Positions 13,561-64,000 of a stretch of DNA of 64,000 bases are shown here, piece after piece. The DNA is taken from the IMG/VR virus record IMGVR_UViG_3300029288_000115, positions 32,163 through 96,162 of that record. The stretch is one strand, 5' to 3'. The translations under genes were made by a program, and so were the position numbers. Positions within the stretch are counted from its first letter, which is position 1; each line of letters begins with the position of its first letter. A model generated the notes under the pieces. It did no database searches. It saw only the letters and a program-made list of their open reading frames with translations, and was not told the origin of the DNA. This stretch comes from a virus. Lineage: Duplodnaviria > Caudoviricetes.

Positions 13561-13938
13561 TCACTTTCCCCTCCCTTCGTTCACGTGGTCGGCGATATTC
13601 TTAATTAACCTATCTAAACGATATTCAGTATCTTCTTTTCCAAAAGCAACGACCAGAGTATCTATTAACCATAATTCGGGATATATTACACCCTCTATTT
13701 CTTCTTTCTCTACCTTCACTGCCTCTCTCCCCGCCTCATTCCTTCCGCTCTCTAATCCCTTGTTATACCATTCCATTTTTGCATCTTCTATTATCTCGTT
13801 TATGGCGGTCTCGGCTTCAGCAACCTCTTTACTTAATTGAGTAGACTGAAATATCCCTATGGGTTTTGGTTCCCAGCACATAGAAGCAAATCCACACAAC
13901 TGCCCTAAAATCTCCCTGACCTTAGTTTCCTTTTCCAT
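13561..13938 (-). CDS. Hypothetical protein, paralog of 61717..62007
   Basis: Shared KVREIL and EAExAINxIIEDAKMEWYNKGLExGRNEA blocks. Confidence 0.65.
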   Translation of the reverse strand: MEKETKVREILGQLCGFASMCWEPKPIGIFQSTQLSKEVAEAETAINEIIEDAKMEWYNKGLESGRNEAGREAVKVEKEEIEGVIYPELWLIDTLVVAFGKEDTEYRLDRLIKNIADHVNEGRGK

Positions 13939-14076
13939 CGGCGGTCTCCTTCCGTTTAGTCCATTTCCTACGAATATAAACTAAATTATTCCCTTGTATT
14001 CCTAAAAACTGCCAACCCCTTTGTTTTGGTTTTGGAATGGGGAAACGTAAAATTTTAACAGGAAATCTATCTTTCA

Positions 14077-14104
14077 TCTTTTTCCCCATCGCTATATCTC
14101 CTCT
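14077..14104. repeat. 28-nt gene-junction repeat, copy at 61965..61992
   Basis: tctttttccccatcgctatatctcctct identical at both sites; encodes ...EEI-stop, RBS, MGKK. Confidence 0.9.
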
Positions 14105-14442
14105 CTCTTTCTACTCTGGGCGGAGAGAATGGCTTGGGCGAGAAATTCTACTTCTCTCATCCCAATAAAATACAAAGCAGGACTTTTATTAAACTCTCCC
14201 CTTGTTTTTGCATTTTGAATAGCAATTATTAAAGATAATTTAATCTCCTCTTCCGTCAACCTCTCCGCTTCCTCAATTCGTTTTAGCTTGGCGAGGGCGT
14301 GGCTTATATTTATATCAAACATTTCCTTTTCGTTCTGATTTCTAAAATTTGCTAAACACAAATTCTTCAACACATCCCTACGTGTCATCTCTTCACCTCC
14401 ACCAGTTTGTAGAGAAAATGTATCCTTTATATGGCAAGACAC
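14092..14442 (-). CDS. Hypothetical protein (likely start at MTRRD)
   Basis: GGAGGTG RBS precedes the internal ATG. Confidence 0.55.
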   Translation of the reverse strand: MSCHIKDTFSLQTGGGEEMTRRDVLKNLCLANFRNQNEKEMFDINISHALAKLKRIEEAERLTEEEIKLSLIIAIQNAKTRGEFNKSPALYFIGMREVEFLAQAILSAQSRKREEI

Positions 14443-14596
14443 TCATATTGCGAAAACTAACCCCAGGTGATGGAATAAACCTTTTTATTTTTATTCCAAC
14501 ACCGGGTTTTCTTTTTCTTAAGAAGGGGCTATTAACTAAGACTCGTGATTCCGTGACGTTGTTTTTTGAGTAGCCACCCTTAGTAGTCATAGCCCC

Positions 14597-15310
14597 TCAT
14601 CTAGGCTCTCCTTCTGGTAATAATTTTAATAAACACTTAGGATGCCAACTTTGATACCCCATTGCCATATCTATACAATACCATTTTCCGGCTTTGGCTC
14701 GACAGAAATCAATCGACCAATACCCATCAAATTTCGTTGCTATTTTACAAGCATAATCATTTAAAAGTTTCTTTTCTTCTTCTATCTCCTTATTAATTTC
14801 GTCTAATTTTTTATGATATTTTTCTTCTTCTATACTTTCACTTGTCCAATATGGATGATGACAAATAAGTTTATTCTTATAAATAAAATATCTCCTCTCT
14901 GGATTGATAGGTAAGTCACCCCCAAAGAATCTAAAGGCTGTGTCCATCTCAATATATTCCCGAACGGCATAAGAAGTTACAGGAACGCCACCAAAAACAT
15001 CAAGACATTCACATTCATTAGCTATCCTTTGGATATGTTCTTCCAAAACATCCAAACTTGGCACAAAACAGGTGTCCTTCCAATCGTGTTTTATACTACT
15101 ATGACTTCCCCTTAAAAAAATTGGAAAAACAAAATCTTGAGCTGCCTGAACAATCTCCTTAATATACTTCTTGGGAATATATAAAAATTCCCCTGATTTA
15201 TGCCATTTTCTTTTAACCGGAACAATAACTGTTTTCGGCGTTGGAATAAGACCTTGAATTTTAGGATACCAATATTCAATGGCATTTTTATCAATTCCCT
15301 TTTTCATCAT
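14597..15310 (-). CDS. ATP-grasp domain protein
   Basis: FLRGxxxSxKH, VRE, ERRYFI, WSIDF, WYCIDM motifs. Confidence 0.7.
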   Translation of the reverse strand: MMKKGIDKNAIEYWYPKIQGLIPTPKTVIVPVKRKWHKSGEFLYIPKKYIKEIVQAAQDFVFPIFLRGSHSSIKHDWKDTCFVPSLDVLEEHIQRIANECECLDVFGGVPVTSYAVREYIEMDTAFRFFGGDLPINPERRYFIYKNKLICHHPYWTSESIEEEKYHKKLDEINKEIEEEKKLLNDYACKIATKFDGYWSIDFCRAKAGKWYCIDMAMGYQSWHPKCLLKLLPEGEPR

Positions 15311-15699
15311 TCCCCCTTCCCCAGCAGGTGGGTTCTAAAATCATTCATAGCTTGCTCAATATAATAATCGGTCTTATCCATAGTTCCCATAACGCCATTG
15401 TGATATAGAGCGATTAAAATTTCCCTTAACCCCTCAATCCTTCCGGCGAGGGCAGACACAGCATAATCTACCCCCTCATTAAACCCCACAGTTTTATGAT
15501 AATCACTTTCAGATATATGTTTGGTTTTGTTATGGCAAATAATCTTTCTTTTAGGAAGCTCTCTTTTACTGATTACCCCCTCAAGAGCAATGACGGTCTC
15601 AATAATTTTCATAATCTTTCCTTGCTGGTCTTGAGGAATAAATCCATACAATTGATAATGCTTAACTATTTCCTTTAGGTTATCTTCTCTGGTTATCAT
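15307..15699 (-). CDS. Hypothetical protein, paralog of 62946..63398
   Basis: Shared MITRED, ETVxALEGV, AGRIEGL and RTxLLGKGE blocks. Confidence 0.65.
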   Translation of the reverse strand: MITREDNLKEIVKHYQLYGFIPQDQQGKIMKIIETVIALEGVISKRELPKRKIICHNKTKHISESDYHKTVGFNEGVDYAVSALAGRIEGLREILIALYHNGVMGTMDKTDYYIEQAMNDFRTHLLGKGE

Positions 15700-15711
15700 T
15701 TCGGCTCCTTT
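15682..15711. repeat. 30-nt RBS/start junction repeat, copies at 16175..16204 and 63381..63410
   Basis: atcttctctggttatcatttcggctccttt is identical in three places. Confidence 0.9.
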
Positions 15712-15717
15712 GGTAGA

Positions 15718-15876
15718 CTAACTCCAATCAATAAGACAAACATCTGGTAACTTTGAAACCGCAATCCCTTCGGTTTTCTCTTGCAAAATACTAAATAGCG
15801 TATCCTCATCAACTATTCTTATCGTTGGTTCGCCATCACCTTGCTTGTTTTTATAATCCTCAATTAAATATCTCAT
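15718..15876 (-). CDS. Hypothetical 52-aa protein (MRYLIED...)
   Basis: Not in the track; RBS shared with 63395..63862. Confidence 0.55.
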   Translation of the reverse strand: MRYLIEDYKNKQGDGEPTIRIVDEDTLFSILQEKTEGIAVSKLPDVCLIDWS

Positions 15877-16014
15877 CTCAAATCACCCCTTCCTTATTTA
15901 ATCTTAATTCAAGTCCTCATCACTGAGTAAATCAAAATCTCCAGTATAAAAATCTTTGTCGCATTTATCACAATGAAATGTTACTTGCTCAAAACAAGAT
16001 ATATCAACCTCTGG
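15871..16014. repeat. 144-nt direct repeat, second copy 63857..64000 (runs off window)
   Basis: 143 of 144 nt identical by visual alignment. Confidence 0.92.
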
Positions 16015-16101
16015 ATTTTCTCCACCTGTAAAATCGCCGAGATAAAATCCCATCAGTTCATTGCATTCAGGACAGCTGGCAGTCAACTTAATTTTAAACA
16101 T
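15904..16101 (-). CDS. Small zinc-ribbon protein
   Basis: CPEC...CDKC; AAGGAGGT RBS; duplicated at the window end. Confidence 0.65.
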   Translation of the reverse strand: MFKIKLTASCPECNELMGFYLGDFTGGENPEVDISCFEQVTFHCDKCDKDFYTGDFDLLSDEDLN

Positions 16102-16449
16102 TTTTACCTCCTTCTATCTGGTCTTGAGGAATAAACTTGTATAAACGATAATGCTTAACTATTTCCTTTAGGTTATCTTCTCTGGTTATCATTTCGGCTC
16201 CTTTCACATTACCAGCCATTTCTCAAACCCCCACTTTGGGCGGGGGATGTCGCCGCTCTATATTTTCTCATTTTGTAACCTCTATTTCCTTAATAGCTCC
16301 CCAATTTAGTACAGCCATCCTCTCAGAGTCTTTCCAGATCGTAAGCACATTAAAGCTAACACCATAACTAGTAGCTCCTCTGTACTCCTTTATAGTACCA
16401 TCTAGGAAACTCACCATAACCGAAAAAAATAAAATTAAAAAGTATTTTC

Positions 16450-16791
16450 TCATTTTTTCTCCAATCTTTTAAGAAGTTCTGCAGCTAAGTCTTCTCTAAA
16501 GCCCTCTTTACTGCTAGACTTTGAGCTCTGCTCTGTATCAAATATTATTCTTTTTAATTCATCTTTATCTGGTACGGATATTAAAGTCTTCGAATTATCT
16601 TTATCTCCATAAAATTCTTTAAGTACTGCGCTAATAATCCATCCAATAACTCCAGCCCAAGATATGCAAAATCCCATCCCATAGGTCATTAAAATTTCAC
16701 TAAGAAGGCTGTTCTCGTCTAAATCAACCAAAGCCATAGTAAATCCCAAAGATATAAAACCACCAACTAAGTATAAAAATAAATAAGACAT
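16450..16791 (-). CDS. Predicted membrane protein
   Basis: Two hydrophobic N-terminal segments. Confidence 0.55.
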   Translation of the reverse strand: MSYLFLYLVGGFISLGFTMALVDLDENSLLSEILMTYGMGFCISWAGVIGWIISAVLKEFYGDKDNSKTLISVPDKDELKRIIFDTEQSSKSSSKEGFREDLAAELLKRLEKK

Positions 16792-17728
16792 TAAATCTCC
16801 TCCTTATAAACTGGCCAATAATCTCTTAAACTTCCATCACATCTTTCGCTATGAACCTTTCCATCCCACCCAAAAACAAGTCTTGTCCCATTACAAGGAT
16901 AATTATATCCTACACTCTCTAATTGTACTTCAGATATTCGATGGCCACAAATTTTACATTTATAATAATCTATATTTAAAATTGTCTTCTTCTCTTTACC
17001 CATATTTCTTTCCCTTAAAATTAATTTTCTTTCCGCACTTTGGGCAATACTCAAATCGGATATGCAAACGATTATACTCATCGTTAGTTAGTTCTCCTAC
17101 CCCATGCTTTATTACTCGAAAGGTGCCCATAAAAGGATTATATAATTCAGAAATACCAACCCAATGCCTGCACTTCTTTGTCTTCACTTAACTCTTCCTG
17201 TTCTCTTCTTAGAAGCCCTAGCACACCAAGCCTTAAACATATGCCTCTTCACATCTGAATCAACCCAATTATATTTACTTCGTAACCAAGCATAAAAGTC
17301 TTTCGTTTCCTTCCCAATATTCATAGTCATCTATCTCCTTTATACTATTTAACGTCTTTCCTCTCTTATCTATCATTCAACTTCATTTCATATTTGATTT
17401 TTCATTCCCACTCTCCCTTTCCTTTTTCAATATCTCATAAATAGCCCGTGTTTGTCTCTCAAACTTGTCCACATGAGCATCAAATGCTATAGCACAACGT
17501 TGCAAAAGATAGTTTGATATGCCAATGGGCTTTGGCACACATCCCACAAAATATAAACAAATTATTAAAGCCTGGATTTTAAGAGGCAAATTAGTTATAT
17601 ATCGAACTATTTTTAAATACCGAACAGTACCGACAATAATATCTTTTGTTATATTACCTAAATTAAACACAATAAAGACCTATATCTTTTCCATAAACCA
17701 AACGCCTTTAAAGGTATTTCAAAAGTCT

Positions 17729-18307
17729 TCATTTCAATTCCTTCCTAATAAACTTTGAAAGCTTACTCAATGCCAATTTTAATCGCCAACGAATCTTCAT
17801 CTTCGTTAATCCTAAACTGTTCTGAATCTCGTTATACGAATATCCTCCTAAAAATCTGAGTTGTACTACCCCTTTCTCTTCCTCAGTTAAACCAGAAAGT
17901 TTCAAGATATCTTCTAAATCAATATTTGATACGTGCTGATCTAAATCCCAACGCGATGTTTTACCCTCCGTCTGAGGCAGTAATTCCTCTTTATATTTAT
18001 ACCTATAAATGCGTCTAACCTCAGCTTTTATATAAGCCTGTATTCTAGCAGGAATAGTCTCTGGATCGTCTGATGCCCTTACAGTCTTAAAGGCTTTAGA
18101 CGTAGCAATTATTGCAATATGATACAAATCTTGCATTTCTTCATATTGTAAAACACTATATTTAAACTTTAACTTATGCGCAACATAAATTAAATACATA
18201 TCAAACTTGGCTAACAAGGATAAAAATAGCTCGTTGTCTTTTGTTTTATTATACTCTAAAATCATCTTTAAAGCGTCACGCAAGGAAAAATTAAAAAGAT
18301 GTCTCAA
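17729..18307 (-). CDS. Sigma70-family RNA polymerase sigma factor
   Basis: Region-2-like EMQDLYHIA; region-4 HTH LTEEEKGVVQLRF..GYSYNEI...LG...ALSKL. Confidence 0.7.
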   Translation of the reverse strand: MRHLFNFSLRDALKMILEYNKTKDNELFLSLLAKFDMYLIYVAHKLKFKYSVLQYEEMQDLYHIAIIATSKAFKTVRASDDPETIPARIQAYIKAEVRRIYRYKYKEELLPQTEGKTSRWDLDQHVSNIDLEDILKLSGLTEEEKGVVQLRFLGGYSYNEIQNSLGLTKMKIRWRLKLALSKLSKFIRKELK

Positions 18308-18325
18308 GGACTCTCCAAATTTGAT

Positions 18326-20317
18326 CTACTGCAATTTATTAAACAGTTTCTTTAAAATGTCTATCTTATTCCCATGTTTTACACCAATAATTTCTTTACC
18401 ACCGGCATCCTTAAATACTAACGGATTTACTTTAGATGAAAGACTATCAGAAGCCGTTAACTTTTTTATAGCACGAATCATGCTTTCAGTATCCATAAAG
18501 GCATTACTGTTCTTCAAGCAACTTTCAATAGATCCAGCTACTGCATCAGCCACATCTTTACTGCCAGCTAAAACAATTTCCTTAATATCACCACTATCTA
18601 ATATTTCAATATCCACAACCTCTTCAGGATGATCCACAAAGTTTTTTACTGGATCATACTCTAAATTTTTTATTTCAAAAAATAACATATTATGAACGTG
18701 ACAAATCCATCTCTTATCATATATAATATCCTTAAAATCATTATAGGCATCAGGACTTTTATCAACACTTAAAGACTCAGCCTTTACTCCAGCCTTAATT
18801 AAAACTTGAAACATATTCTCAGACATCAAGCGTAAATCACAAGTAAAGAAAATATTATAACCAAGCCCTTTTAAATCCAATACCAATTTATTTATCTGAT
18901 TAAGAGGAATACGATCTCCCTCCTTAGCTACTAAACGCATAATAAAATCAGTCTCTATTACAGGTAAACGCTGAATGGCAAAAGTTCCATCTTCTTTCTC
19001 TACATTAACATCTTCCCAACCCTTAATTCCAGACATAGCTAAACCTAAAGCATCCCCCGTAACTGCTATATCACAATGTAAAAATCTGGGTACGCTTTTA
19101 GGCATCCGAAACTTCTTAACATCCAAATACATTAATAAAAATCCAGGGTCTCTTAATCCAATCGAAATAGTTGGAATCGATACGGGGTCTTCTTTCGTCT
19201 CATCAAAACATTCCTTAATAAATCTTTCAGATGCTATAAGCTTTCTTTTCCTTACACCCGCAACTGTCACCCCAGCTAAGTCCCGTAATGCTCCAACAAG
19301 ATCCCTCTCAAATTCATCTCTAAACTCTGCAGGCACAGAAATAATTTTAAATCCAGACTTCTGTGCTTCTACAATACTCTCAGAATTTAAAATTTTTGGC
19401 ATAGTAAAACCATCCCCAACCGCAACCGAAAACGTGACTCCAGAATAATATCTTTTTGGCTTTGCCTCCCATAAAGGTATATCGTATACTAACACCTTCC
19501 CAGAGGATTGCATCTTCGTAATAAATGTATCCATAAAAGATAGCTCATCTTGCTTAGAAGCCGCCAAAAACATTCTACCTAAACTATAACCATTTATAAC
19601 AAATCTTGATTCGAATCTTCTAACTGTAGCTTCGTAAGCTTTTAAAACTCTAGCCTTCTGTTTAATAGAATCGGTAGGAGAATCTAACTCATCTAATAAC
19701 GCAGCAATAACATCCTCTCCAATAACACCAAAACCACGAGCGTAAGGAGAAGCCAACACATAATCAAAAAGAGGCATCCATAATTGCTGGTCAGTTTTGC
19801 CTTTCAAATATGCGCCACGGGAATTTAAAAACCAGGGGGATTTTGTTATCAACGACTGTAGTTTGCTAAATCCTCGAGAGTCTCCTAAAGTCTTCGTTAA
19901 ATTAAAGAAACAAACCGTCATCTTACCAGAATCTGCCAAACCAAAATAAGACCAAGGATTTTTTAAGCAACTTATATGGTACTTAATATATGCAATTCCT
20001 ATATCAGCAACAGTTGTTTTTCCCGTACCTATAGCTCCAGTCAAAACAACTAAAAATTTATTATCATTTTCAAAAATCTCTTTTAAAGCATGTTTCCAAA
20101 CATCATATATAGCCTTACCATTCTCAGTAGCCTTTCCTAAAAAATAATCATCCTTAATAAAAGTTAAAACATCTACAGGTTTTTCTCTATAATCTAAAGA
20201 AATCAATTCATCAAGATATGATTTAACAACATTCAAATCACGATACTTCCCCTTCTTCGGCTCCTTCTGCATCTGCAAGCTCCTTCTGAATCGCCTTAGT
20301 AAGTTGCTCTCTCTCAA
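18326..20317 (-). CDS. terL: Terminase large subunit
   Basis: Walker A LTGAIGTGKTT, Walker B LLDE, nuclease HCDIA and KDVADAVAG motifs. Confidence 0.88.
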   Translation of the reverse strand: MRESNLLRRFRRSLQMQKEPKKGKYRDLNVVKSYLDELISLDYREKPVDVLTFIKDDYFLGKATENGKAIYDVWKHALKEIFENDNKFLVVLTGAIGTGKTTVADIGIAYIKYHISCLKNPWSYFGLADSGKMTVCFFNLTKTLGDSRGFSKLQSLITKSPWFLNSRGAYLKGKTDQQLWMPLFDYVLASPYARGFGVIGEDVIAALLDELDSPTDSIKQKARVLKAYEATVRRFESRFVINGYSLGRMFLAASKQDELSFMDTFITKMQSSGKVLVYDIPLWEAKPKRYYSGVTFSVAVGDGFTMPKILNSESIVEAQKSGFKIISVPAEFRDEFERDLVGALRDLAGVTVAGVRKRKLIASERFIKECFDETKEDPVSIPTISIGLRDPGFLLMYLDVKKFRMPKSVPRFLHCDIAVTGDALGLAMSGIKGWEDVNVEKEDGTFAIQRLPVIETDFIMRLVAKEGDRIPLNQINKLVLDLKGLGYNIFFTCDLRLMSENMFQVLIKAGVKAESLSVDKSPDAYNDFKDIIYDKRWICHVHNMLFFEIKNLEYDPVKNFVDHPEEVVDIEILDSGDIKEIVLAGSKDVADAVAGSIESCLKNSNAFMDTESMIRAIKKLTASDSLSSKVNPLVFKDAGGKEIIGVKHGNKIDILKKLFNKLQ

Positions 20318-20881: not shown

Positions 20882-21273
20882 GTAGCTCTCCTACCAAATC
20901 TTTTCAAAATTCTTCCCGTCTTCAAAAACTTCATCAACAAAGGCAATAAAGATTTTCTAGCCTTCCCCTCATCCTTCTCACCTTGATAGTAAAGCTCAAA
21001 CCCTAAACGTATAGGACAATCTCTCCAATAACATTTACAATAATTCTTTTTCTGTTTCTTCATTATGGCTCCCCTCTACTTTTCCTCGTCTGCTCAAGAT
21101 AATCAATAATTAAATTAACTGCTTTAACAAGATCAATAATATCAAGTTCTGCCTTCTTCAAGGTATAATTAGCAATAGGCGCATTCTCCTCCGAAAACCG
21201 TGAAGGCAACTTGGGGTTGGCCTGTCGCCTCCGTAGTGGCTGCACAAATATATCTACAATTTTCTTACGCAAC

Positions 21274-24487: not shown

Positions 24488-27461
24488 TAACCTCTCCAGT
24501 ATCTAAATAACTAATTCCGTTTTCCTTTCTAACCTTCCAAATACTATTACAATAGCTTTCCAAATCCTTAAAATGAGAAATCACCAAAACCGCTTTAGTC
24601 ATTCCCTCTTCATATAAAACGTTTCCAATCGACTCTTCACCGGCCTTATCTAAAAATGCAAATAACTCATCAAAAATTACCATACCTAAAAGTCCATTAG
24701 CAATATCATTTCTCTTTGCAATCCATGTATTCAAAGACAGACATACAGCAAAATCAACCCGCCGCTTCTCGCCACCAGACAGACTCTCATACCCAACCAC
24801 ATCACTTCCTATATAAATATCCATGCCTATTTTATTCCTTTCATCCCCGGACTTCAATTGCATAGTTGGACGTATAACAATATTCATTAAACCATTAGAT
24901 ACTGAAGCTAAGTATGGATTTACTATCTGATTAAACTCATTACAAAATCCATCCAATAATAAAGCACGAATACCTTTAGACGAAAAAGCAAACTTCCAAA
25001 AGTCCAACATTTTAATCTCTTCATTAATCTTAGTCGTCTTCTTTGGGAGTTCACCCAACTCCAAATTCTTTTGCTCTAACTCTTCGTCTATTGCGTCCTT
25101 TCTTTTCCTATACTCGTTTAATTGTTCTAAAGTATTATCTAGACTCAACTTATGATAGCGTAAGGATACCTGATAAGCTGAAATTCTTTCTAACAATTGA
25201 GTCTTTTTTATTGAGACTTCTTGGAGTTTTTCCTTTTCTTTTTCTTTTTCTTCGCAAAGAGCAACTTGGTGTTGTTTTACTTCCAAAACTTTTCTATTAA
25301 GTTCCTCCTCCATCGTCCTTATATCTTGCAGAGTCTTACCATTTTTCTCAGATGCTAAATGCGTTGATTCTAATAATAAAATTACCTTTTTAATCTTTTC
25401 CTCTATCCTCCCAATCTGTTCATAATAGTCTTCAACAAAACTACTCACGTTAGATTTTTCAATCTTTGCGCCACATTTATCACATATAGCACCAATTTCC
25501 AGCTTTTCCGCGGAGCTTATTAGAGCCCTAACCCTATCAATTTCTTGCTCAGCATACTTAATATCGAACTCATATCCAGTAGCATCTTTAATTATCTTAT
25601 TTTTTTCTGTTTGGCAATCTTCAAGCCTCTTTCGGTACTTCTTCAAACTCTGAGTTAAAGACTCCTCAGCATCTTTCATGCTCTTCAAATCGGCATCAAT
25701 CTCACTAAAATCTTGGGCTGTGGTAGAAGGTAATAAAAGTATTTGTTCATTATAATTCTTTAAACCAATCTCTAACTCGTATATGGTATCCTTAATTCTT
25801 TTAATCTGCTCATTACAAATATTAAGATTCTGCTCCTGGTCTTTTACCCTGCATAACACCCCTTGAATATCCATTAATAAAAGCTTTTCCACCTGTTGCA
25901 GCTCATCTAAATTAATATTCAAACCTTTTATTCGGTCAAAAATGCTTTCATATAACTCATCATAAATTTCAAATCCCAAAAGACGCGTTATCATTGCGGT
26001 GCGATCAGCGTCACCCATAGCTGTAAGCATCTTCAATGCTTCCTGACTAAAATAACAAGATGATAAAAACACATCTCTATCAAAGCCAAGGATTTGTTGT
26101 TCCAAGGCCGTCTGCTTATCCACCTCTCTCATACCTTCAAATAAATCTACAGGGTTCTCATCTTCAGATAAATTATACCTAATAACCTCCAAGCCCGTAA
26201 CCCTTGAACGTGTAATCTTATAAGCACACGAAGATTCTGTATCATTAACTAACGTTATAGATACCTGACAATCTTTTTCTCCGCGTCTAATTACGTCCTT
26301 ACCTGTGAGACCAGTCGTTGTGGAACCAAATAAACACCAATAAATAGCCTCCCCAAATAGAGAAGACTTACCTGAACCATTAGAATTAAACTCTCCAAGG
26401 CTATTTCCCTCAATTAAAACAAAACCGTTTGTTAACTCATAAGAGGCCTCGCCAACAGATTTAAAATTTTTAACGTGTACAAACTTTAACTTTCCTTTAA
26501 ATATTGTTTGAAAAGATATAACCTTCTCTGTTATCAAATCTTTAATAGATTCCAAATATGTTTGATCGACACCCTTCAAACTCATCCATTGCAATAATAT
26601 CTCACTAAAACTTTGAGCCTTAATCCTTTCCTCAAAGAACTCAGGTACTATACTACTAATCACATTATCCATCTCCACTCTTTTATTCACACCTAAAATA
26701 CGATAATAATTCTTTGTATCGACCTTTATGGCCAACCAGTCAATATCGTCTTTACCCTCCTCATTAATCGTTTTAAACTCCGGATAATCCAATTTTATAA
26801 ATTGAGGAATACCGCCATCATAAATATAAACTCCTCTATCACCCTCATCACCAAAAGTTAAATGCATCGGCGACCCTACCACTATACAATTTGGTGCTAG
26901 TTCTTGTCGCTGATGGATATGCCCAAACCACACCGACTTATTCTTCTCAATTAATCTACGCCAATATACGCCTTCAGAAAACTCATGTTGCCCAACTCTA
27001 GCACCAATAGGAGTCTTATGCAAAACTAAGATATCAAAGCCAACAAGCTCTTCATAATTTACTGGCTCGTTATAGCTAATTAATCTTACTTTATCATTAA
27101 AAATATTAGAGTCTTTTTTAAATATCCAACCAGCGTCCTGAAACCATTTCGGATTCACTCTGTCAATTAAATCATGGTTTCCAGAACAAATATTATATTG
27201 AACATTAATACTATGTAATCTCCAAAAAAACTGATAGGCTATATTTAAACATTCCACAGGCACAGTACCAACAGGATGAAATAAATCTGCCAAAAATAAA
27301 ACTCTAGTCACTTGATGATCTTTACAAAGCTGAATAATCTGGTCTAAAACGGACAACTGTTCTTTAAGCCGACGAGACATCCCGGTTGCCGTATCTAAAC
27401 CAAAAGACTTCCACGTGTTTAAATGTAAATCAGAAAATAATAAATATTTATCTTTTAACAT
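24438..27461 (-). CDS. Fused SbcD(Mre11/gp47)-SbcC(Rad50/gp46) recombination nuclease
   Basis: SDLH, GNHD, GHIH phosphoesterase motifs; NGSGKSS Walker A, CDKCG zinc hook, LSGGEK signature, IFDE Walker B, ISH. Confidence 0.92.
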   Translation of the reverse strand: MLKDKYLLFSDLHLNTWKSFGLDTATGMSRRLKEQLSVLDQIIQLCKDHQVTRVLFLADLFHPVGTVPVECLNIAYQFFWRLHSINVQYNICSGNHDLIDRVNPKWFQDAGWIFKKDSNIFNDKVRLISYNEPVNYEELVGFDILVLHKTPIGARVGQHEFSEGVYWRRLIEKNKSVWFGHIHQRQELAPNCIVVGSPMHLTFGDEGDRGVYIYDGGIPQFIKLDYPEFKTINEEGKDDIDWLAIKVDTKNYYRILGVNKRVEMDNVISSIVPEFFEERIKAQSFSEILLQWMSLKGVDQTYLESIKDLITEKVISFQTIFKGKLKFVHVKNFKSVGEASYELTNGFVLIEGNSLGEFNSNGSGKSSLFGEAIYWCLFGSTTTGLTGKDVIRRGEKDCQVSITLVNDTESSCAYKITRSRVTGLEVIRYNLSEDENPVDLFEGMREVDKQTALEQQILGFDRDVFLSSCYFSQEALKMLTAMGDADRTAMITRLLGFEIYDELYESIFDRIKGLNINLDELQQVEKLLLMDIQGVLCRVKDQEQNLNICNEQIKRIKDTIYELEIGLKNYNEQILLLPSTTAQDFSEIDADLKSMKDAEESLTQSLKKYRKRLEDCQTEKNKIIKDATGYEFDIKYAEQEIDRVRALISSAEKLEIGAICDKCGAKIEKSNVSSFVEDYYEQIGRIEEKIKKVILLLESTHLASEKNGKTLQDIRTMEEELNRKVLEVKQHQVALCEEKEKEKEKLQEVSIKKTQLLERISAYQVSLRYHKLSLDNTLEQLNEYRKRKDAIDEELEQKNLELGELPKKTTKINEEIKMLDFWKFAFSSKGIRALLLDGFCNEFNQIVNPYLASVSNGLMNIVIRPTMQLKSGDERNKIGMDIYIGSDVVGYESLSGGEKRRVDFAVCLSLNTWIAKRNDIANGLLGMVIFDELFAFLDKAGEESIGNVLYEEGMTKAVLVISHFKDLESYCNSIWKVRKENGISYLDTGEVNEKSNTEKEVCNINNF

Positions 27462-27970: not shown

Positions 27971-27971
27971 A

Positions 27972-38550: not shown

Positions 38551-39606
38551 CTATTCAGAAAGGCCTTCGGGGTCTTCCGCTAATAAAGTGTCTCCATCCA
38601 CCTCAAAAGGGTGTATTTTTCCCTCATCAATTAACTTTAAAATCTCCTCATATCTACTTTTAACTTCTTCTTTCTTCATCTTATCAGGAAATCCTGCAAC
38701 CTGATAGTGCCCCCCAGATCCTCCACGTATAAAGCCCTCTATCTTCAAGGTATCAAAGAGATAACTATAAAGATTAATACCACTCTTAAATAATATAACT
38801 AACAATGTAGTCTTAAATGGTTCAATTATTCTATTCTTAGTCACAGAAATTTTACTGCGTACCCCAACAATCTTTTTGTTAGGGTCATAAAACTTAGCCC
38901 GTAACTCAATTAGCAATCGAACATAGGAATGAAACTTTAAGCCGCCCCCACCCGAAGATAGCTTCATGGGGAATCTTTCCCCAATAACATCATACGAATG
39001 ATTATTAATTACATATAGACAATTAGCCTTCTTCACATACTTCTGAATCAATCTCATAGCTTTCCTAATCTGCTTAGCTTTCGACAAATCAACCTTATCC
39101 ATTCCCGCCTCAAGCTCATGACGCGTTGATAAAGCCCCAATACTATCTAAGGCTATAATCATAGGCACTTGAGAACCAGAAGCTATCTTCTCTTCCAGAA
39201 TTTTTTGAACCCTTTCAAAATGCTGCTCAACAGAATCAGAGGGCTCATCAGGTACCCAAATCCTCTTCAAATCCACCCCAACCGACTCCGCAAATCTTGG
39301 TAATAAAGAAAATTCCGGGTCATCATACCATACTAAACCCTTTAATCGCTGGATCTCTGCAAATAAATGATACAGAAGTAAAGACTTCCCAGCTATCGGA
39401 TCACCATAAATTTCAATTATTTTCCCTAAAGGTAATCCCCCAAAGAACTTCCCAGAGATTATGTAATTCAGCGTATAGCAATGCGTACTAATAAACTCCA
39501 AAGGGCTTATATCGACACTTGCAAGTAATCCTTGCTCTTTTAAACTTTGTTCAAAAGTTTTTGCCACCATTTTTAAACCTCCTACTCCTTTAATCCAGCA
39601 AAACAA
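38551..39606 (-). CDS. uvsX: RecA/UvsX recombinase
   Basis: GLPLGKIIEIYGDPIAGKS, ALDSIGAL, SGGGGLKF, KNRI..PFK. Confidence 0.9.
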   Translation of the reverse strand: MFCWIKGVGGLKMVAKTFEQSLKEQGLLASVDISPLEFISTHCYTLNYIISGKFFGGLPLGKIIEIYGDPIAGKSLLLYHLFAEIQRLKGLVWYDDPEFSLLPRFAESVGVDLKRIWVPDEPSDSVEQHFERVQKILEEKIASGSQVPMIIALDSIGALSTRHELEAGMDKVDLSKAKQIRKAMRLIQKYVKKANCLYVINNHSYDVIGERFPMKLSSGGGGLKFHSYVRLLIELRAKFYDPNKKIVGVRSKISVTKNRIIEPFKTTLLVILFKSGINLYSYLFDTLKIEGFIRGGSGGHYQVAGFPDKMKKEEVKSRYEEILKLIDEGKIHPFEVDGDTLLAEDPEGLSE

Positions 39607-55956: not shown

Positions 55957-56081
55957 CTTTTTCCTCCTTTTTTGTCTTGCAATTCTTCATTGATAGCAAT
56001 AATATGCACTCCATCACAAATGCAATACCCAAACACTGAACTGCACTCAACACCCTTTCTCACCTCCTTACTCTCTTTTTG

Positions 56082-56173: not shown

Positions 56174-56200
56174 TACCAATCAAGCTCAACCTTATTTCCT

Positions 56201-56512: not shown

Positions 56513-56531
56513 TATCCTCCCTTCTACTCGT

Positions 56532-57749: not shown

Positions 57750-58153
57750 TAAACCTTTCCTTCCTTATATTTACTGATAGCAGCAGAAACGTACTCAGAG
57801 GTAAAGCAAATTCTCTGTCCTTCAGGATTCTGTGCAATAATAGGATACTTTGGTCGACGTATCAAAAGACCAATGATTTTACACACACCATGGCGACTCA
57901 TAAAGAGTTTCCCTAAATCTGAGGCTTCCAAGCCATAAGTAGAGGCATATTTTAAAAAGTCTTCTCTCTCTTTCGTCCTAACTTCCCCAGACTTATCTAC
58001 CAAAGAAACACTTAATTGAAACGTAGCCGACGTTTCGCTAAAAGAAATGTTTCCCATGGAGAACTTAACAGACTGCTCCGATTCCAGATTTTTTAAAGCC
58101 CCCATAATTCCATCTCTTATTTCCTTTAGTATCTCTTTTGTTAACCTTGTCAT
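57749..58153 (-). CDS. Hypothetical phage protein
   Basis: Coupled ORF. Confidence 0.55.
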   Translation of the reverse strand: MTRLTKEILKEIRDGIMGALKNLESEQSVKFSMGNISFSETSATFQLSVSLVDKSGEVRTKEREDFLKYASTYGLEASDLGKLFMSRHGVCKIIGLLIRRPKYPIIAQNPEGQRICFTSEYVSAAISKYKEGKV

Positions 58154-58187
58154 TTTATACCCCCTATAAGAATTATTTTTTGCCTAT

Positions 58188-58442
58188 TTAATCTCGTACG
58201 ACAATATTTTCCAAATCTTCTCTTTCGCAATTATCAGCAATTTCTTTACAAATATCATATAGAGATAATCGTGCCTTATGTTCTGCTTCGCTTAAACTAT
58301 CGTCAATATGCATTGCGCAGTCTCTTAAATCGCCTAATGTATTTTCGAATCTACAATATGCCATATTTCCCATTGTTCTTTCTCCTTTCACTAGTTCATT
58401 ATATAATAACCATATACACAACGTGTACCATTTCTCGAACAA
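58188..58442 (-). CDS. Hypothetical phage protein (likely start MGNMAYCRFENT)
   Basis: NMxYCRFENTxxDLxDC motif. Confidence 0.55.
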   Translation of the reverse strand: MFEKWYTLCIWLLYNELVKGERTMGNMAYCRFENTLGDLRDCAMHIDDSLSEAEHKARLSLYDICKEIADNCEREDLENIVVRD

Positions 58443-58903
58443 TTATAGGTGTCCTGAATGACTCCATCAATAACAGCAACCACATGCTTCGATACGCGAA
58501 CTACCAAACGTCCTGTCGGCAACTCTTCTTTTCTTAAATGAACTCTACACCCACTTCCAATAAACATAGTAGAAGTCCATTTCCAACCCAATGAAAGCAT
58601 ATATTTAGTAAGAGTTTTTCTTCCTATGCCCGTTCTTGCATTGGAACGATGCCTGTGTCTCCGAGTGATCCTTTCCATTTCTCCCAGTATATTAAGATTA
58701 TTATAAACCTCCTGATAAGGCTTTCCTGTAGCTATCGCTACAGCACGAACAACACAATCCCCCGTCTTACCTTTATATCCAGCTGCTTGTCGACCACCAT
58801 CATTATATGCAAAATCCACTCTATCCTCCTTTCTATTCCATCTCCGTATGGTCAATATCTTCTCCCTCATTATCATACCACTCTGTCCACTCTCCATTTT
58901 CAT
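58391..58903 (-). CDS. Conserved phage hypothetical, papain-like Cys/His pattern
   Basis: GDCVVRAVAIATG...KHVVAVIDG. Confidence 0.55.
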   Translation of the reverse strand: MKMESGQSGMIMREKILTIRRWNRKEDRVDFAYNDGGRQAAGYKGKTGDCVVRAVAIATGKPYQEVYNNLNILGEMERITRRHRHRSNARTGIGRKTLTKYMLSLGWKWTSTMFIGSGCRVHLRKEELPTGRLVVRVSKHVVAVIDGVIQDTYNCSRNGTRCVYGYYIMN

Positions 58904-59141
58904 AAACCTCTAAACCAGCGGCATTACTATAATCAGACTTTATGTGTTGCGAAAATTGAAATATATCATAAAGAGCCAAAACATCTAGAACTTTTCTAGC
59001 TTCTTTAATACTATCAACATCTACTTTAAAGGATTCTCCTGGCACTTGTGGTATATGCCAAACTCTTAGTTGACCTTCCTTAATGTTTTCCATTCTTCTC
59101 ATCTCCTTACTGAATCGTTTTGTTCTCACTATCCTCATCAA
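58833..59141 (-). CDS. P22 gp17-like superinfection-exclusion family protein
   Basis: LRVWHIPQVP...YD.FQ...IK.DY.NA.GLE pattern recalled from that family. Confidence 0.65.
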   Translation of the reverse strand: MMRIVRTKRFSKEMRRMENIKEGQLRVWHIPQVPGESFKVDVDSIKEARKVLDVLALYDIFQFSQHIKSDYSNAAGLEVYENGEWTEWYDNEGEDIDHTEME

Positions 59142-59406
59142 TTAGTTCAAAGTCTATCTCAAAAGACCGCCCTTGTGGTAAATCCATAATAAAAGCCTGT
59201 TTAAAAGACTGATAGCCATTAGGCTCTCCATATATCTTTAACATTATAGCAAGAGCTAACTGAGCGGGACCGGAGCCACCATAGCCCCAATTAAAGCCAT
59301 CAGGACTGTGGTTATGAAGGGTTTGGCTTGGGGCAGGATCTAAAAGTTCTCCATCAAGCCAAACCCTTCTACTAGGATATTCACCCTTTAATTTATGCTT
59401 ACTCAT
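59107..59406 (-). CDS. DUF6166-like protein (start reassigned to MSKHKL)
   Basis: NHSPDGFNWGYGGSGPAQLALA; AGGAGGTG RBS; promoter just upstream. Confidence 0.7.
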   Translation of the reverse strand: MSKHKLKGEYPSRRVWLDGELLDPAPSQTLHNHSPDGFNWGYGGSGPAQLALAIMLKIYGEPNGYQSFKQAFIMDLPQGRSFEIDFELIDEDSENKTIQ

Positions 59407-59444
59407 TATCTCACCTCCTACCAGCTTATTAAGGTTATACATAT

Positions 59445-59473
59445 ATTATAGCATACTTCTCTAAAAATGTCAA
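59445..59473 (-). promoter_or_regulatory. Consensus sigma70 early promoter
   Basis: TTGACA-17 nt-TATAAT with extended -10 TG, intergenic, followed by a strong RBS. Confidence 0.9.
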
Positions 59474-59527
59474 GAACTTTCTTCAACATTTTTCATCTCT
59501 TCATACTACCCTTATTAACTATTCTTC

Positions 59528-60532
59528 TTATTCGTAATCCTCAACGGCCATCATTAATGCTTTCATAATATCAGGATTAGGTTGTGCAATTTCTACGGGT
59601 AATAAGTCGTCTCTGGTAGAATGATGAACATATATACTTCCTAATCGTAAAGCCTCTCTTGCTCTCTCATATAATAAATCTGAATTGTATCTATCATCTG
59701 AATCCATACCATCATCATCACACCAAATATTATTAGCAGCTCTCTCTTTAACCTTTTTAAGATCCGCACCATGGATACTACAATATTCATTTCCTACCCA
59801 AATGGATTCATCATTACACTTATTAATAATCACCTTAATATGTGTGCCGTGAACCTCATTAATATGCTGTATCCAAGAAACAACCTCAGCGTGCCACGCA
59901 TTTGATTCCTCAGTCTCATTTCCAACTTCTAAAATCATATAATCTGCATACTCCTTGGTTTCCTGCATTAATCTCTCCAGATACTTATACATATAATCTT
60001 TCATTCTTTCTGGATCGTTGCTATATTGATACTCCCAAGAACCTTCTCTAGCCCAAATATTATTAACATTATTATCCCTATTAAAAGGATGGTACTCAAA
60101 CTCACTTCTAATTGCCCAATTATCATACACCGAAACTATTACATGAATCCCGTACTTCTTAGCCAATTTAAGTAGGTTAACTATTCTCTTAAAATGTAAA
60201 GGCTCCAGTTGATTCAAATCCCATATTCTCTGGTCATTAACTACGTCAACAACTTTCCAAGGCATAACTCGCCATTGATTGCCACTACCATCCAAGCATC
60301 GTGGCAAAAGGCAAAAAACTCTAGTTATATTAATCTTATTCTCAGAAAAGGATTTGAAACACTCTTTCGCATCCCAATTACCACTCTCAGCTAAATTAGC
60401 GGTGATTATTGAATAACCAACCTTTTCTGCCGTTAATGGCACATCTGGTGTAATTATATCATCCGGCTTGCAACCATACCAACCTAAAATTAAAAAACAC
60501 AAAACACTAAATACTACTAATCCTTTCTTCAT
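59528..60532 (-). CDS. Lipoprotein with clan GH-A (GH5-like) glycoside hydrolase fold
   Basis: Lipobox-like LGWYGC; INITRVF, AKKYGIHVIVS, ILEVGNE, SIH motifs. Confidence 0.65.
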   Translation of the reverse strand: MKKGLVVFSVLCFLILGWYGCKPDDIITPDVPLTAEKVGYSIITANLAESGNWDAKECFKSFSENKINITRVFCLLPRCLDGSGNQWRVMPWKVVDVVNDQRIWDLNQLEPLHFKRIVNLLKLAKKYGIHVIVSVYDNWAIRSEFEYHPFNRDNNVNNIWAREGSWEYQYSNDPERMKDYMYKYLERLMQETKEYADYMILEVGNETEESNAWHAEVVSWIQHINEVHGTHIKVIINKCNDESIWVGNEYCSIHGADLKKVKERAANNIWCDDDGMDSDDRYNSDLLYERAREALRLGSIYVHHSTRDDLLPVEIAQPNPDIMKALMMAVEDYE

Positions 60533-60556
60533 TTTAACCTCCTTACGTTTACTATT

Positions 60557-60844
60557 TTAATCTATGTCCACATAGGTTTCAAAAAGAACTTCACACATAA
60601 AATCCCAAAAAGCCTTTGTTATTCGCAATCCAGAGGCCCCTCCTTGAATAAAACCCTCTTCCCTCCATCTTTGTAATATTTCACGCTCTCCCACATTTAT
60701 ATGAATAGGCTCTATTTTCTGTGCATTTGTCATAACATATTGAACATAAGGAATCAACCTTAATTCAATCGTTGATATCTTTCTACCAATTCGCTCTAAA
60801 GCTATTTTTTGACACTTTTCAGTTAATTCCCCCCTTTTACTCAT
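60557..60844 (-). CDS. Hypothetical phage protein
   Basis: GGAGG RBS; ELRLIPY motif. Confidence 0.55.
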   Translation of the reverse strand: MSKRGELTEKCQKIALERIGRKISTIELRLIPYVQYVMTNAQKIEPIHINVGEREILQRWREEGFIQGGASGLRITKAFWDFMCEVLFETYVDID

Positions 60845-61506
60845 TTTCTTATCCTCCTCTCTTTAAATCTCTTCTATAGTTACACGAACTTTCTTGGGTC
60901 TATATACGTTGTTATTGGGCTTACATACATGACTTGTTGGTATTGAAGCTTTAAAGTCCAAATGAAAATAAAAAGCGTGTTCCCAAAGAGGGTTCGTCCA
61001 ACCAATTAAACTTTTCTTTTTGTTCTTAGTTCTTATCTTACTCACCTCCTTTATTATTTTAATATTAAAACCAATCTAAAAAAATTAAAAGTATAAGCAT
61101 TCCACAACTTAAAAATCCCATAGTCAACAACTGCTCACTCAAATATATTATTCCAAATATGAAATTAAAGAGGCAAAAGATGCTCATCAAACCAAATATG
61201 ATATTAATTAATCTTTGCATATCTTCTCCATTATCCAAATCTTATCGAATATAGTCTCAATAGATATAAGATCTCTTCCAAAAATAGGCCAACAACCATC
61301 ATATGGCAAAAGATCTTTCCAACCCTTTCTCCATAATTCTTGAGCTTTCTCGGTTAAATCTTCTCTAATTCGCCAGCCTTTTGGAATATTTCTGGTCAGA
61401 GTTAGCATTAGATAACCAACGGGTAATAACCTATCCTTAGAAAATCCCTTTATCGTTTCTAATCTTTTTAATTGCTTTAATTTCTTTATCACTATTAACC
61501 TTCACA

Positions 61507-61695
61507 CTATAAAACTTCAAACTCTTTTATAATCTTACAAAGCATTTTTTCTGATACGGTACTTTTTCCAGTCTCTAATCGGCTTATCATTACTTGTGAA
61601 AGTCCAATATGCTTGCCAAATTCTGCTTGAGATAAGCCGTAGCTTCGTCTCAATTCACGAAGCTTTTCACCAAAAGTAATCATACTGAATTTCAT
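61507..61695 (-). CDS. XRE-family HTH regulator
   Basis: LRELR...LSQAEFG..IGLSQ..ISRLETGK. Confidence 0.9.
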   Translation of the reverse strand: MKFSMITFGEKLRELRRSYGLSQAEFGKHIGLSQVMISRLETGKSTVSEKMLCKIIKEFEVL

Positions 61696-61716
61696 CTTTC
61701 TTTCTCCTCCCTTCGT

Positions 61717-62007
61717 TCAATAAGTCCGACGTTCTATTCCCGCTCTCTTCGCCTCATTCCTTCCGCCTTCTAATCCCTTGTTATACCATTCCATTTTTGC
61801 GTCCTCTATTATCACATTTATAGCAGCCTCGGCTTCGGTGATTTCCTTCTCGTATTCAGGGGTAAATTGTCCAGAAGAATCTACTTTTAAAATTCTATAA
61901 CAATGTGTTTCAAATCTTTCTAAAATCTCCCTGACCTTGCTGGAAATTAACTTTATTTCTATTCTCTTTTTCCCCATCGCTATATCTCCTCTGTGGTTAA
62001 ATCCCAC
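61717..62007 (-). CDS. Hypothetical protein, paralog of 13561..13938 (likely start MGKK)
   Basis: Shared DNA and protein blocks. Confidence 0.6.
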   Translation of the reverse strand: MGFNHRGDIAMGKKRIEIKLISSKVREILERFETHCYRILKVDSSGQFTPEYEKEITEAEAAINVIIEDAKMEWYNKGLEGGRNEAKRAGIERRTY

Positions 62008-62019
62008 CCCACCACAAAC

Positions 62020-62979
62020 CTATCCTTCCTCATTGGGAACCTCCTTCTTAAAACTATTGTCTAATAGTTTTTCTTTATACCATTCAGGAAAACCCGCAAC
62101 CGCTTTTCTTAAAAGCCCGTCTTTAAAACAACTCCAGAGAAAATTCTTGATTTCTTCTTTTTCTTCCTCCTCAATATCTTTTCTAATAGCAATAAGAAGT
62201 TTCCCTATATCTTTGGGGGCATTCTCAAGTTCACCATTATCTCTTAAATGCTGAATTGATTTTAACCAGCGGGCTTCGGTTCTGTAACTTTCGATAAACA
62301 ACTCCCACTTGCCTTTATCGGTATGTTCTTTCCCCCAATTAGTTTTATGCTTTTCTTTAAATTTTTCCGAAACAAATTTACCCGCCATAAGCGGAATCGG
62401 TTGCCCCCCTAATAAAAATGGACGGGAATAATTTTTTACTACAAACCCCTCAATTTTAGTTCCACCTAAAACACTTTCGGTTTCTAATAAACTTAACAAA
62501 CTTATCTTGTCTTCAACTCGCCCCTTAAACAATAGAGGCACAACCTCAACATCAACCATTTTTGCAAAGCTGGTTAAATTATAATATTCAGATATAAAAG
62601 TCCCACCTTCGCTTGAAACACCAAAAAGAATAAGGTTGTTTGTCGGAGTTCTTTTGTATGCCAAAACGTTATGTCTGGGCGACTTAAGATATTCACAATA
62701 AAAAACTGTATTATTAGGAATTTTTTCTTTAATAGACAAAACATAATCAACCGCCAGAGAAAACATTTTATCTGGTGCGTCAGCAATAATTTCTTTCCCC
62801 TTACTTCGCATATACAATTCCCCATTAACCTTTCCAAAAACAAACTGACTTCCATCTATCTTTTCTGTTATTTCTACATCCTCATTAAAAAGGTCTCTAA
62901 TATAGTCTGTCCCTACCGTAAAAATCTTTGGAAATGCGTGTATCATCACTCCCCCTTCCCCAGCAGGCGAGTGCGGCAC
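62020..62979 (-). CDS. RNA ligase (Rnl2-like nucleotidyltransferase), likely start MIHAF
   Basis: TEKIDGS, E, F, VVP, EGFVVK, K motifs. Confidence 0.75.
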   Translation of the reverse strand: MPHSPAGEGGVMIHAFPKIFTVGTDYIRDLFNEDVEITEKIDGSQFVFGKVNGELYMRSKGKEIIADAPDKMFSLAVDYVLSIKEKIPNNTVFYCEYLKSPRHNVLAYKRTPTNNLILFGVSSEGGTFISEYYNLTSFAKMVDVEVVPLLFKGRVEDKISLLSLLETESVLGGTKIEGFVVKNYSRPFLLGGQPIPLMAGKFVSEKFKEKHKTNWGKEHTDKGKWELFIESYRTEARWLKSIQHLRDNGELENAPKDIGKLLIAIRKDIEEEEKEEIKNFLWSCFKDGLLRKAVAGFPEWYKEKLLDNSFKKEVPNEEG

Positions 62980-63398
62980 TGGTCAATTATTTCTAAACAT
63001 TTATCGCAACGGTGGATGCGTGGATGGTCTCCTGCGTGAATAACTTTTTTGCCAAAAAGCTGACAAATATGATTCTTTGTTGTTGGATGACGCTCGGGTG
63101 TAAAAAGATATTTGCAATTTATAGGACAAAACTTCAGCCCCTCAATCCTTCCGGCGAAGTAGGCGATACAGCTCTCCCTCATTTTCCAAGCTCCGTCATC
63201 AACACACCCCTTACACCCAGTTTCACAAGTATGTTTATGAGATTCTATACTCGGCAGCACCCCCTCAAGAGCAACTACCGTCTCGGCAAGGGAAAGAAGT
63301 TTTACTATTGTTTTTTTCTCTGCTTCATCCACATAACCGGCACAATACAGCCGCTTCATTAATTCCTTAAGCAATGCTAAATCTTCTCTGGTTATCAT
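62946..63398 (-). CDS. Hypothetical Cys-rich protein, paralog of 15307..15699
   Basis: Shared conserved blocks flanking different internal segments. Confidence 0.6.
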   Translation of the reverse strand: MITREDLALLKELMKRLYCAGYVDEAEKKTIVKLLSLAETVVALEGVLPSIESHKHTCETGCKGCVDDGAWKMRESCIAYFAGRIEGLKFCPINCKYLFTPERHPTTKNHICQLFGKKVIHAGDHPRIHRCDKCLEIIDQCRTRLLGKGE

Positions 63399-63862
63399 TT
63401 CGGCTCCTTTAATTTAAAATTCCTTTTCATTATGATATTAACTCCTTCTTCTGTCCCCCAGATATACCAACCCGATTCTTTATATTCTTCTTCTTGAGGC
63501 GGATTAGAGATTATTGTGGGATTTTTCTTACCTCCCGTTAAAAACTCTTTTAATTTACCTTTAAACATAATTTTAGCCTCACCCACACAACCCACTGGAG
63601 AAGCTAATAAAACAATATTTCTTTCTAATAAAGCTACAGACATATCATCACAACCAACACCCTCACCAAAAAAGAATTCCACCGCATAATATCCTTCTTT
63701 TTTAAATTCTTCTAACTTGTCTTGAAGTGGCATATAAGAATGAGTATCAAAATACTCATTTACATAATCATAAAATGCTAATCTTTGCCTATTGTCATCC
63801 CAAGACATTTTTAGTTTTTCTCTTGCATATTCAATCGCCTGATTTATTGTATATTTTCTCAT
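63395..63862 (-). CDS. Hypothetical protein
   Basis: Lies between two repeated junction linkers. Confidence 0.55.
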   Translation of the reverse strand: MRKYTINQAIEYAREKLKMSWDDNRQRLAFYDYVNEYFDTHSYMPLQDKLEEFKKEGYYAVEFFFGEGVGCDDMSVALLERNIVLLASPVGCVGEAKIMFKGKLKEFLTGGKKNPTIISNPPQEEEYKESGWYIWGTEEGVNIIMKRNFKLKEPK

Positions 63863-64000
63863 CTCAAATCACCCCTTCCTTCTTTAATCTTAATTCAAGT
63901 CCTCATCACTGAGTAAATCAAAATCTCCAGTATAAAAATCTTTGTCGCATTTATCACAATGAAATGTTACTTGCTCAAAACAAGATATATCAACCTCTGG

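Follow-up and report, generated by a model that had tools for sequence, protein, structure and literature searches.

Two early-gene islands of a T4-like metagenomic phage share short blocks at gene junctions and conserved protein motifs

A 64,000-nucleotide (nt) stretch of viral DNA, here called the window, forms the right-hand 64 kb of the 96,162-nt IMG/VR contig IMGVR_UViG_3300029288_000115, a linear metagenome assembly with a CheckV completeness estimate of 67%. The window carries two gene islands, one at 13.5-16.2 kb (island 1) and one at 61.7-64 kb (island 2), with about 48 kb between them. The gene content is T4-like, with an intein-bearing portal and a RecA/UvsX-type recombinase, and the phage is remote from every cultured phage (portal about 28% identical to its best matches). 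Every gene discussed here is encoded by the minus strand and is transcribed towards lower coordinates. The islands are linked by nine collinear blocks, and the DNA between these blocks is unalignable. We favour, with moderate confidence, the interpretation that the islands are paralogous copies of one early-gene module that has been repeatedly patched by short-homology exchange. Three divergence classes (99-100% identical, 88% identical, and saturated or non-homologous) stand side by side in the islands, which is more than duplication and divergence can account for and therefore requires recombination; simple duplication followed by divergence was ruled out on this ground.

Shared blocks and the genes between them

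In transcription order, island 1 consists of linker b, a 32-amino-acid (aa) fragment, a 65-aa zinc-ribbon gene, linker a, gene X1 (52 aa), linker b again, a 130-aa gene, linker c, an R2K ATP-grasp gene (237 aa), a 116-aa gene, linker d, a 55-aa gene, a 125-aa gene, junction e, a gene for a 53-aa membrane protein and the portal. Island 2 begins at the contig end with the C-terminus of the zinc-ribbon gene and linker a, followed by gene X2 (155 aa), linker b, a 150-aa gene, linker c, an RNA ligase gene (308 aa), linker d, an 86-aa gene, junction e and a helix-turn-helix (HTH) gene. An earlier note on this DNA had reported four repeats, a to d, shared by the islands. All four are real (143/144, 30/30, 24/25 and 28/28 positions identical), but they are part of a larger set, in which the four linkers are joined by five further blocks.

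Linker a (15873-15901 and 63859-63887) contains the ribosome site and start of X1 in its first copy. Linker b, the ribosome site and first six codons of the gene that lies between linkers b and c (the b-c gene), is identical at all 30 positions in its three window copies (15682-15711, 16175-16204 and 63381-63410). Linker c (15304-15328 and 62943-62967) lies at the end of the b-c gene, where the last codons and the stop overlap the start of the next gene, and its single difference in 25 nt is synonymous. Linker d (14077-14104 and 61965-61992) is a ribosome site with the first four codons, identical at 28 of 28 positions, and the fifth junction, e (13564-13583 and 61700-61719), is 20 nt long with one mismatch. 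Each junction block covers a purine-rich ribosome site, a start codon and one to six codons, and the junction blocks work as ribosome-binding and start regions. The sharp loss of identity at gene borders described in the earlier note was confirmed, with identity falling to random within one to two codons of the start codon.

This amount of sharing is far above background. The 96-kb contig has only about 13 unrelated exact direct repeats of at least 16 nt, from which about 0.02 would be expected island by island; at least nine collinear blocks were found. When initiation regions (positions -20 to +12) were compared in 6,555 pairs, the pairs formed by linkers d, a and b ranked first to third with 29, 27 and 26 of 32 positions identical, against a background with a maximum of 23/32 and a mode of about 13. 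A generic ribosome-site consensus as the source of the linkers was rejected, as these three pairs are outliers.

The same bases are also read differently in different places. Linker a is a non-coding spacer in both islands and a coding C-terminus in a third context, the contig L005 described below. After X1, the first 15 nt of linker b are non-coding; in X2 and in X3, the corresponding gene of L005, they supply the final residues and the stop codon. Linker d is the coding end of the 116-aa gene in island 1 and a non-coding spacer after the RNA ligase in island 2. Junction e is the end of the 125-aa gene in island 1, and in island 2 it comprises the stop codon of the 86-aa gene and the ribosome-site spacer before the HTH gene. 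Since each of the linkers a, b, d and e codes for protein in one place and not in another, their conservation is at the nucleotide (DNA or RNA) level and not at the protein level.

No promoter or terminator above background was detected in the linkers, and promoter-like matches in the islands were near shuffle expectation. Linkers a, b and c did not fold better than their shuffles (z = 0.02, +1.83 and -0.34), with linker b folding less well than 196 of 200 shuffles. Linker d reached z = -3.85, yet this corresponds to a weak six-pair fold of -6 kcal/mol. An Rfam search of the whole window and L005 at the gathering threshold returned no match, not even a tRNA, and no complementary copy of a linker was found elsewhere within five mismatches.

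The b-c genes are homologues. The 130-aa protein of island 1 (15307-15699), which starts with MITRED and ends with LLGKGE, and the 150-aa protein of island 2 (62946-63398), which carries a Cys/His-rich insert, are 29% identical (E 2e-12). Two of the further collinear blocks lie inside these genes, each at a conserved family motif: an exact 16-nt block (15575-15590 and 63259-63274) and an exact 20-nt block (15430-15449 and 63138-63157). Over the four exact blocks of the pair, which were defined by nucleotide identity itself, 20 of 20 degenerate codons are identical, with a probability of about 10^-8.6 from the codon usage of the genome; outside the blocks the same codon is used at 10 of 26 shared residues, where the chance level is 0.45. 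By this codon test, divergence between the b-c genes is deep, but their blocks either go back to a much more recent common origin or are constrained at the DNA level.

In an exhaustive profile search, 1.84 billion representatives yielded only two outside homologues of the 130/150-aa proteins (P0013 and P0014), and the family is thus an orphan one, with four members known from public data. P0013, a 119-aa protein encoded on a 1.5-kb Logan contig of an unrelated assembly, has the first six and last nine residues of the 130-aa copy and the longer motif version of the 150-aa copy, with unrelated sequence in between. At the protein level only, P0013 is a mosaic in which both local b-c alleles are represented and the termini are kept, an instance of allele mosaicism outside the contig. 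The more distant P0014 retains the two internal motifs and not the termini. The retention of these motifs in P0013 and P0014 indicates that the internal blocks correspond to family-wide protein motifs. The insert of the 150-aa copy (approximately residues 97-143) is homologous to stand-alone proteins of 109-118 aa from other assemblies (P0015-P0018), which match solely this insert. The 150-aa copy has therefore also gained a domain, and the insert looks like a small zinc-binding domain put into the family scaffold.

The earlier note held that the islands carry different cargo between the same linkers, and this is true for some slots only. Between linkers a and b, X1 (15718-15876) and X2 (63395-63862) have no similarity to each other or to X3, so that the slot is held by three unrelated genes; X1 had no Pfam or PHROG match. 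In the enzyme slot, the two identities given in the note were borne out: an R2K-clade ATP-grasp gene in island 1 (14597-15310; PF14243, R2K_3, E 7.6e-8) and an RNA ligase gene in island 2 (62020-62946; PF09414, E 2.5e-12; phrog_548, E 4e-22). Pairwise comparison found no similarity between these two enzymes, nor between the 55-aa protein and the N-terminus of the 86-aa protein. The ATP-grasp and RNA ligase genes follow homologous partners in the same slot, where one enzyme of the ATP-dependent ligase type may have been replaced by another, non-orthologous one. The b-c genes and the last genes of the series, in contrast, are homologues.

The remaining genes complete this picture. The 116-aa gene (14092-14442), present in island 1 only, has its last codons within linker d, where the 55-aa gene (13922-14089) and, in island 2, the 86-aa gene (61717-61977) start. 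The 125-aa gene (13561-13938) encodes a protein 53% identical to the 86-aa protein, and this pair contains two more collinear blocks, an exact 19-nt block (13905-13923 and 61920-61938) and a 97-nt segment that is 88% identical (13722-13818 and 61740-61836). The HTH gene (61507-61695) lies downstream of junction e. The exact ATP-grasp protein and exact proteins from both islands are also present in an independent ENA assembly. The same assembly contains a variant of the 125-aa protein (P0007) with a two-residue swap within the 97-nt segment (13722-13818) common to island 2, which may reflect strain variation or an exchange between the paralogues.

A repeated unit and a third context

The longest shared sequence is the repeat at linker a, which is identical at 143 of 144 positions between 15871-16014 and 63857-64000, with the lone mismatch at 15896/63882. 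Window position 64000 is the contig end, and for this reason the repeat is truncated; the near-perfect repeat of the earlier note is one part of a larger, apparently recently copied unit that includes a whole gene. In island 1 this unit, called R, is 334 nt long (15871-16204) and comprises linker b, the 32-aa fragment of a b-c gene N-terminus, the 65-aa zinc-ribbon gene (15904-16101) and linker a. In island 2, only its right part is found in the window (63857-64000; the last 36 codons of the zinc-ribbon gene and linker a).

A metagenome scan with the zinc-ribbon protein recovered a contig, Ga0265297_10003941 (25,380 nt), of which the first 10 kb (L005) were analyzed. This contig breaks off after the first 45 nt of a zinc-ribbon gene. 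Its final 148 nt are 99.3% identical to window positions 16204-16057, and all sequence upstream is different. Together with the match of the window end to 15871-16014, this gives the length of 334 nt for the repeated unit. The second copy of R is thus made up of the 148-nt tail of L005 and the 144-nt end of the window, each 99.3% identical to the first copy from opposite sides, with 42 nt uncovered; the copies of R differ at two positions. A second contig from the same scan, L006, was rejected as unrelated (GC content 46%, tetranucleotide r = 0.26).

L005 is very probably the upstream continuation of island 2, judging from its composition and shared elements. Its tetranucleotide usage correlates with that of the contig at r = 0.986, compared with 0.93-0.99 for the contig's own 10-kb chunks and 0.89 for a distant relative (L004), and an early promoter element of about 60 nt is common to L005 and window positions 59440-59477. 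As R has two entries and two exits, the only linear path using each flank once would be U-R-S-R-T, which would join L005 to island 2. An assembler k-mer signature was not recovered at the contig ends, which lie 118 nt (contig) and 106 nt (L005) past the last distinguishing base, as no single k fits both.

In L005, an unrelated 113-aa Zn_ribbon_Top1/DUF3268 gene has its last codons and its stop in linker a (9604-9632, identical to island 2 at 29 of 29 positions). Next comes X3 (94 aa), the third unrelated gene, which ends in linker b (9898-9927). If L005 joins island 2, the array reads a-X-b-[fragment + zinc-ribbon gene]-a-X-b. In island 1, direct repeats of 87 nt (92% identical), around 15712-16117, flank the segment formed by the fragment, the zinc-ribbon gene, linker a and X1.

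Relatives were sought in several collections. Exact searches with all four linkers found none in IMG/VR. Protein-anchored IMG/VR searches with the b-c family, the zinc-ribbon protein and the 125/86-aa family also gave nothing, and for the b-c family this negative is weak because the search patterns missed the conserved blocks. A portal-anchored IMG/VR search returned one distant contig, L004, which has no island-like genes upstream of its portal. There was no match for the four-member b-c alignment in prokaryote genome contigs or for either island in GenBank phages at distant blastn sensitivity, and a protein atlas gave only sub-threshold leads for the 150-aa protein. The comparison of linker-bracketed genes in other viral contigs that the earlier note had suggested therefore found no relatives to tabulate.

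Exchange between module copies and its alternatives

What the sequence shows directly is the structure of the islands, their pattern of identity, the third context and a gene for a UvsX-type recombinase; the crossover role of the blocks and the mechanism, direction and timing of exchange are inferred. In the module, a zinc-ribbon gene is followed by the variable small gene X, the b-c family gene, an enzyme of the ATP-dependent ligase type and then small genes, and the genome has two copies of it and probably a third. The copies would be ancient at most positions, which are saturated or non-homologous, and repeated homology-guided exchange between copies or alleles would have ended in the stretches that stay similar, namely translation-initiation junctions and conserved protein motifs. 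The latest event may have been the copying of the 334-nt unit that extends from linker b to linker a, at 99.3% identity. The 87-nt direct repeats have the appearance expected after one crossover in linker b, whether this was an unequal exchange or the integration of a small circle; the mini-circles of the PeSL elements discussed below offer a precedent (PMC2839356).

The recombination genes of the contig are in partial agreement with the UvsX/UvsY machinery invoked in the earlier note. A RecA/UvsX-type recombinase is encoded at 38773-39510 (PF00154, E 5.7e-36; 353-aa open frame), and UvsY was not detected in the contig in a search without a positive control. Within the contig, which represents about 67% of the genome, an integrase (PF00589) gave no match, where the control was positive in 14 of 14 genomes, and no RecT, ERF or Rad52-type annealing recombinase gene was found. 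Classic T4 homologous exchange needs about 50-150 nt of identity, and UvsX-dependent joining at breaks in T4 uses 3-13 nt at low frequency (PMC8262927). By this measure unit R would fully suffice as a substrate for recombination, and the blocks of 16-30 nt would be used in rare events only. A crossover between the two copies of R would delete about 48 kb with essential genes, suggesting that the copy is recent or is kept for some benefit.

Several points weigh against patching by short-homology exchange. The linkers, at 25-30 nt, are shorter than the roughly 50-150 nt given for classic exchange in T4 (PMC8262927), and the 16-30-nt blocks have none of the homology on either side that gene conversion normally requires. 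Recombinant, circular or polymorphic junctions were not observed in the assembled sequence. The assignment of L005 to the same genome is indirect, as the two contig ends are separated by the 42-nt gap and do not overlap. Finally, the linkers occur in no related phage searched (IMG/VR, GenBank phages), and the observation of different cargo between the same linkers comes from three contexts in one lineage.

Another explanation is that the blocks are kept by a function at the nucleotide level, for example as shared operators through which early mRNAs are controlled by a translational repressor or an RNase (RegA- or RegB-like), in which case the copies would be co-regulated and recombination incidental. 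Every junction block consists of a ribosome site and start, approximately the footprint of an initiating ribosome; the blocks are unstructured, as expected for an open initiation region and most evident for linker b; the linkers are outliers among all initiation regions of the genome; and the same bases are kept whether coding or not. However, the five junction blocks have no common motif beyond the purine-rich ribosome site, which makes a single regulator unlikely, and neither a known RNA family nor a complementary copy was matched. The internal blocks are not initiation regions at all, and the presence of the same 29-nt leader on three unrelated genes needs recombination anyway. We regard this explanation as unlikely. 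We give still less credence to the full form of the earlier note's proposal, in which the linkers would be dedicated recombination handles and whole genes would keep moving from one expression site to another, their translational coupling preserved, in an active and recombinase-free cassette system. Its attraction lies in the three unrelated genes between a and b at three sites, in breakpoints that are exact at start and stop codons, in the alternating array (if L005 joins island 2) and in a contig with a UvsX-type recombinase and no integrase. The linkers are indeed ordered pieces of stop, ribosome site and start, and the third context is as that model predicts, but there is no evidence that they evolved for exchange or that exchange is ongoing. 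Exact blocks also occur inside a gene at protein motifs, so that patches of identity mark constrained sequence generally and not cassette borders in particular. In slots c-d and d-e the islands show insertions and partial homology instead of clean swaps, the handles are short for classic T4 exchange (PMC8262927), and a crossover of direct repeats 48 kb apart, with its loss of essential genes, would be a cost rather than a design. A more elaborate form of active shuffling, in which promoter-less genes move among at least three expression sites by 25-30-nt initiation leaders, possibly as small circles like PeSL mini-circles, and so diversify ATP-dependent ligase-type and small zinc-binding proteins, perhaps for host conflict, seems similarly doubtful to us.

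That the genome has only one island, with island 2 an artefact produced in assembly from a variant strain or by a mis-join at the repeat, appears very improbable. The contig does end exactly within the near-perfect repeat, L005 ends in the repeat too, and the record is an incomplete metagenome assembly. However, the left join of island 2 to unique sequence does not involve a repeat, the copies of R are distinguishable by their two differences, and the islands differ over most of their sequence, unlike strain variants. The recurrence of exact proteins of both islands in the independent ENA assembly also argues against an artefact, as would the single linear path through R.

Comparison with known systems

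The closest known match to the islands is the boundary- or linker-sequence model of phage mosaicism, and we do not consider them a new kind of system. In this published model for the mosaicism and modular evolution of lambdoid phages, short conserved boundary sequences lie exactly at junctions, flank non-homologous or highly diverged genes, and are proposed as sites of homologous exchange for general recombination enzymes, with gene starts and translational coupling preserved (PMC3029335). The islands have the same short conserved junction sequences with unrelated or highly diverged sequence on both sides. The model further has one linker recurring beside different genes across the genomes of a recombining population; here three such contexts were found, probably all within one genome. 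They differ in that boundary sequences were described between temperate phages, whereas the copies here are inside one genome of a lytic T4-like phage; in addition, further exact blocks are found inside a gene, and no recombining partners are known outside the lineage.

A T4-type precedent is provided by shuffling at PeSLs (promoter-early stem-loops), in which repeated junction elements in regions of small orphan genes end with a ribosome site and start, as they do here. Insertion, loss and replacement of genes have been linked to these elements, and homologous exchange and the formation of small circles are their proposed routes (PMC2839356, PMC4122927). The 87-nt direct repeats of island 1 are compatible with such a circle. 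However, PeSLs are about 100 bp long and are defined by a sigma70 promoter (-35 and -10 boxes, AT-rich tract) and a hairpin (PMC2839356), both of which the 25-30-nt linkers lack, and one PeSL family is used everywhere, whereas each linker type is specific to one junction. Separate from the linkers, a PeSL-like element was found in the window at 59440-59477 (minus strand) and in L005 at 3231-3268 and 7041-7078 (plus strand). Its promoter is a perfect sigma70 consensus with a 17-nt spacer and a TG ahead of the -10 box; an AT-rich tract lies upstream, a hairpin covers the -35 box, and about 60 nt are conserved in the three copies, each of which precedes a different small gene.

Minihomology recombination by UvsX in T4 likewise involves a RecA/UvsX-type enzyme and offers a route by which 16-30-nt blocks could act as joints, but it concerns break repair giving deletions at 3-13-nt repeats under CRISPR pressure and not gene replacement (PMC8262927), and no breaks or deletions are documented in the islands. 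Integron cassettes resemble them in that single genes without promoters follow one another, with a recurring site bounding each; unlike integrons, the contig has no integrase, there is no attC-like imperfect palindrome, and the sites vary from junction to junction.

Most mosaic joints in phages have no sequence homology, and clear linker-bracketed replacements are therefore useful evidence for homology-guided modular exchange. The present locus is a good place to test such exchange, as the partners are in one genome, the same bases are coding or non-coding according to context, and the codon test separates nucleotide-level identity from protein-level conservation. It bears on whether the T4-type recombination machinery uses patches of 16-30 nt for gene replacement.

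Other repeated sequences were observed outside the islands. The intein/endonuclease segment of the portal gene (window 10942-11883) has a relative that is 76% identical over 291 nt at genome positions 25412-26458 (window -6750 to -5704), inside a 606-aa open reading frame (ORF) about 17 kb away; the phage thus carries two related inteins. Upstream of the portal, a 51-aa ORF (12967-13122) copies a conserved portal segment, and it is also matched by the portal of the distant relative L004 (67% over 21 aa). An intergenic element of 48 nt is 85% identical between L005 (6067-6114) and the far left end of the contig, at genome positions 1143-1190 (window -31019 to -30972, minus strand).

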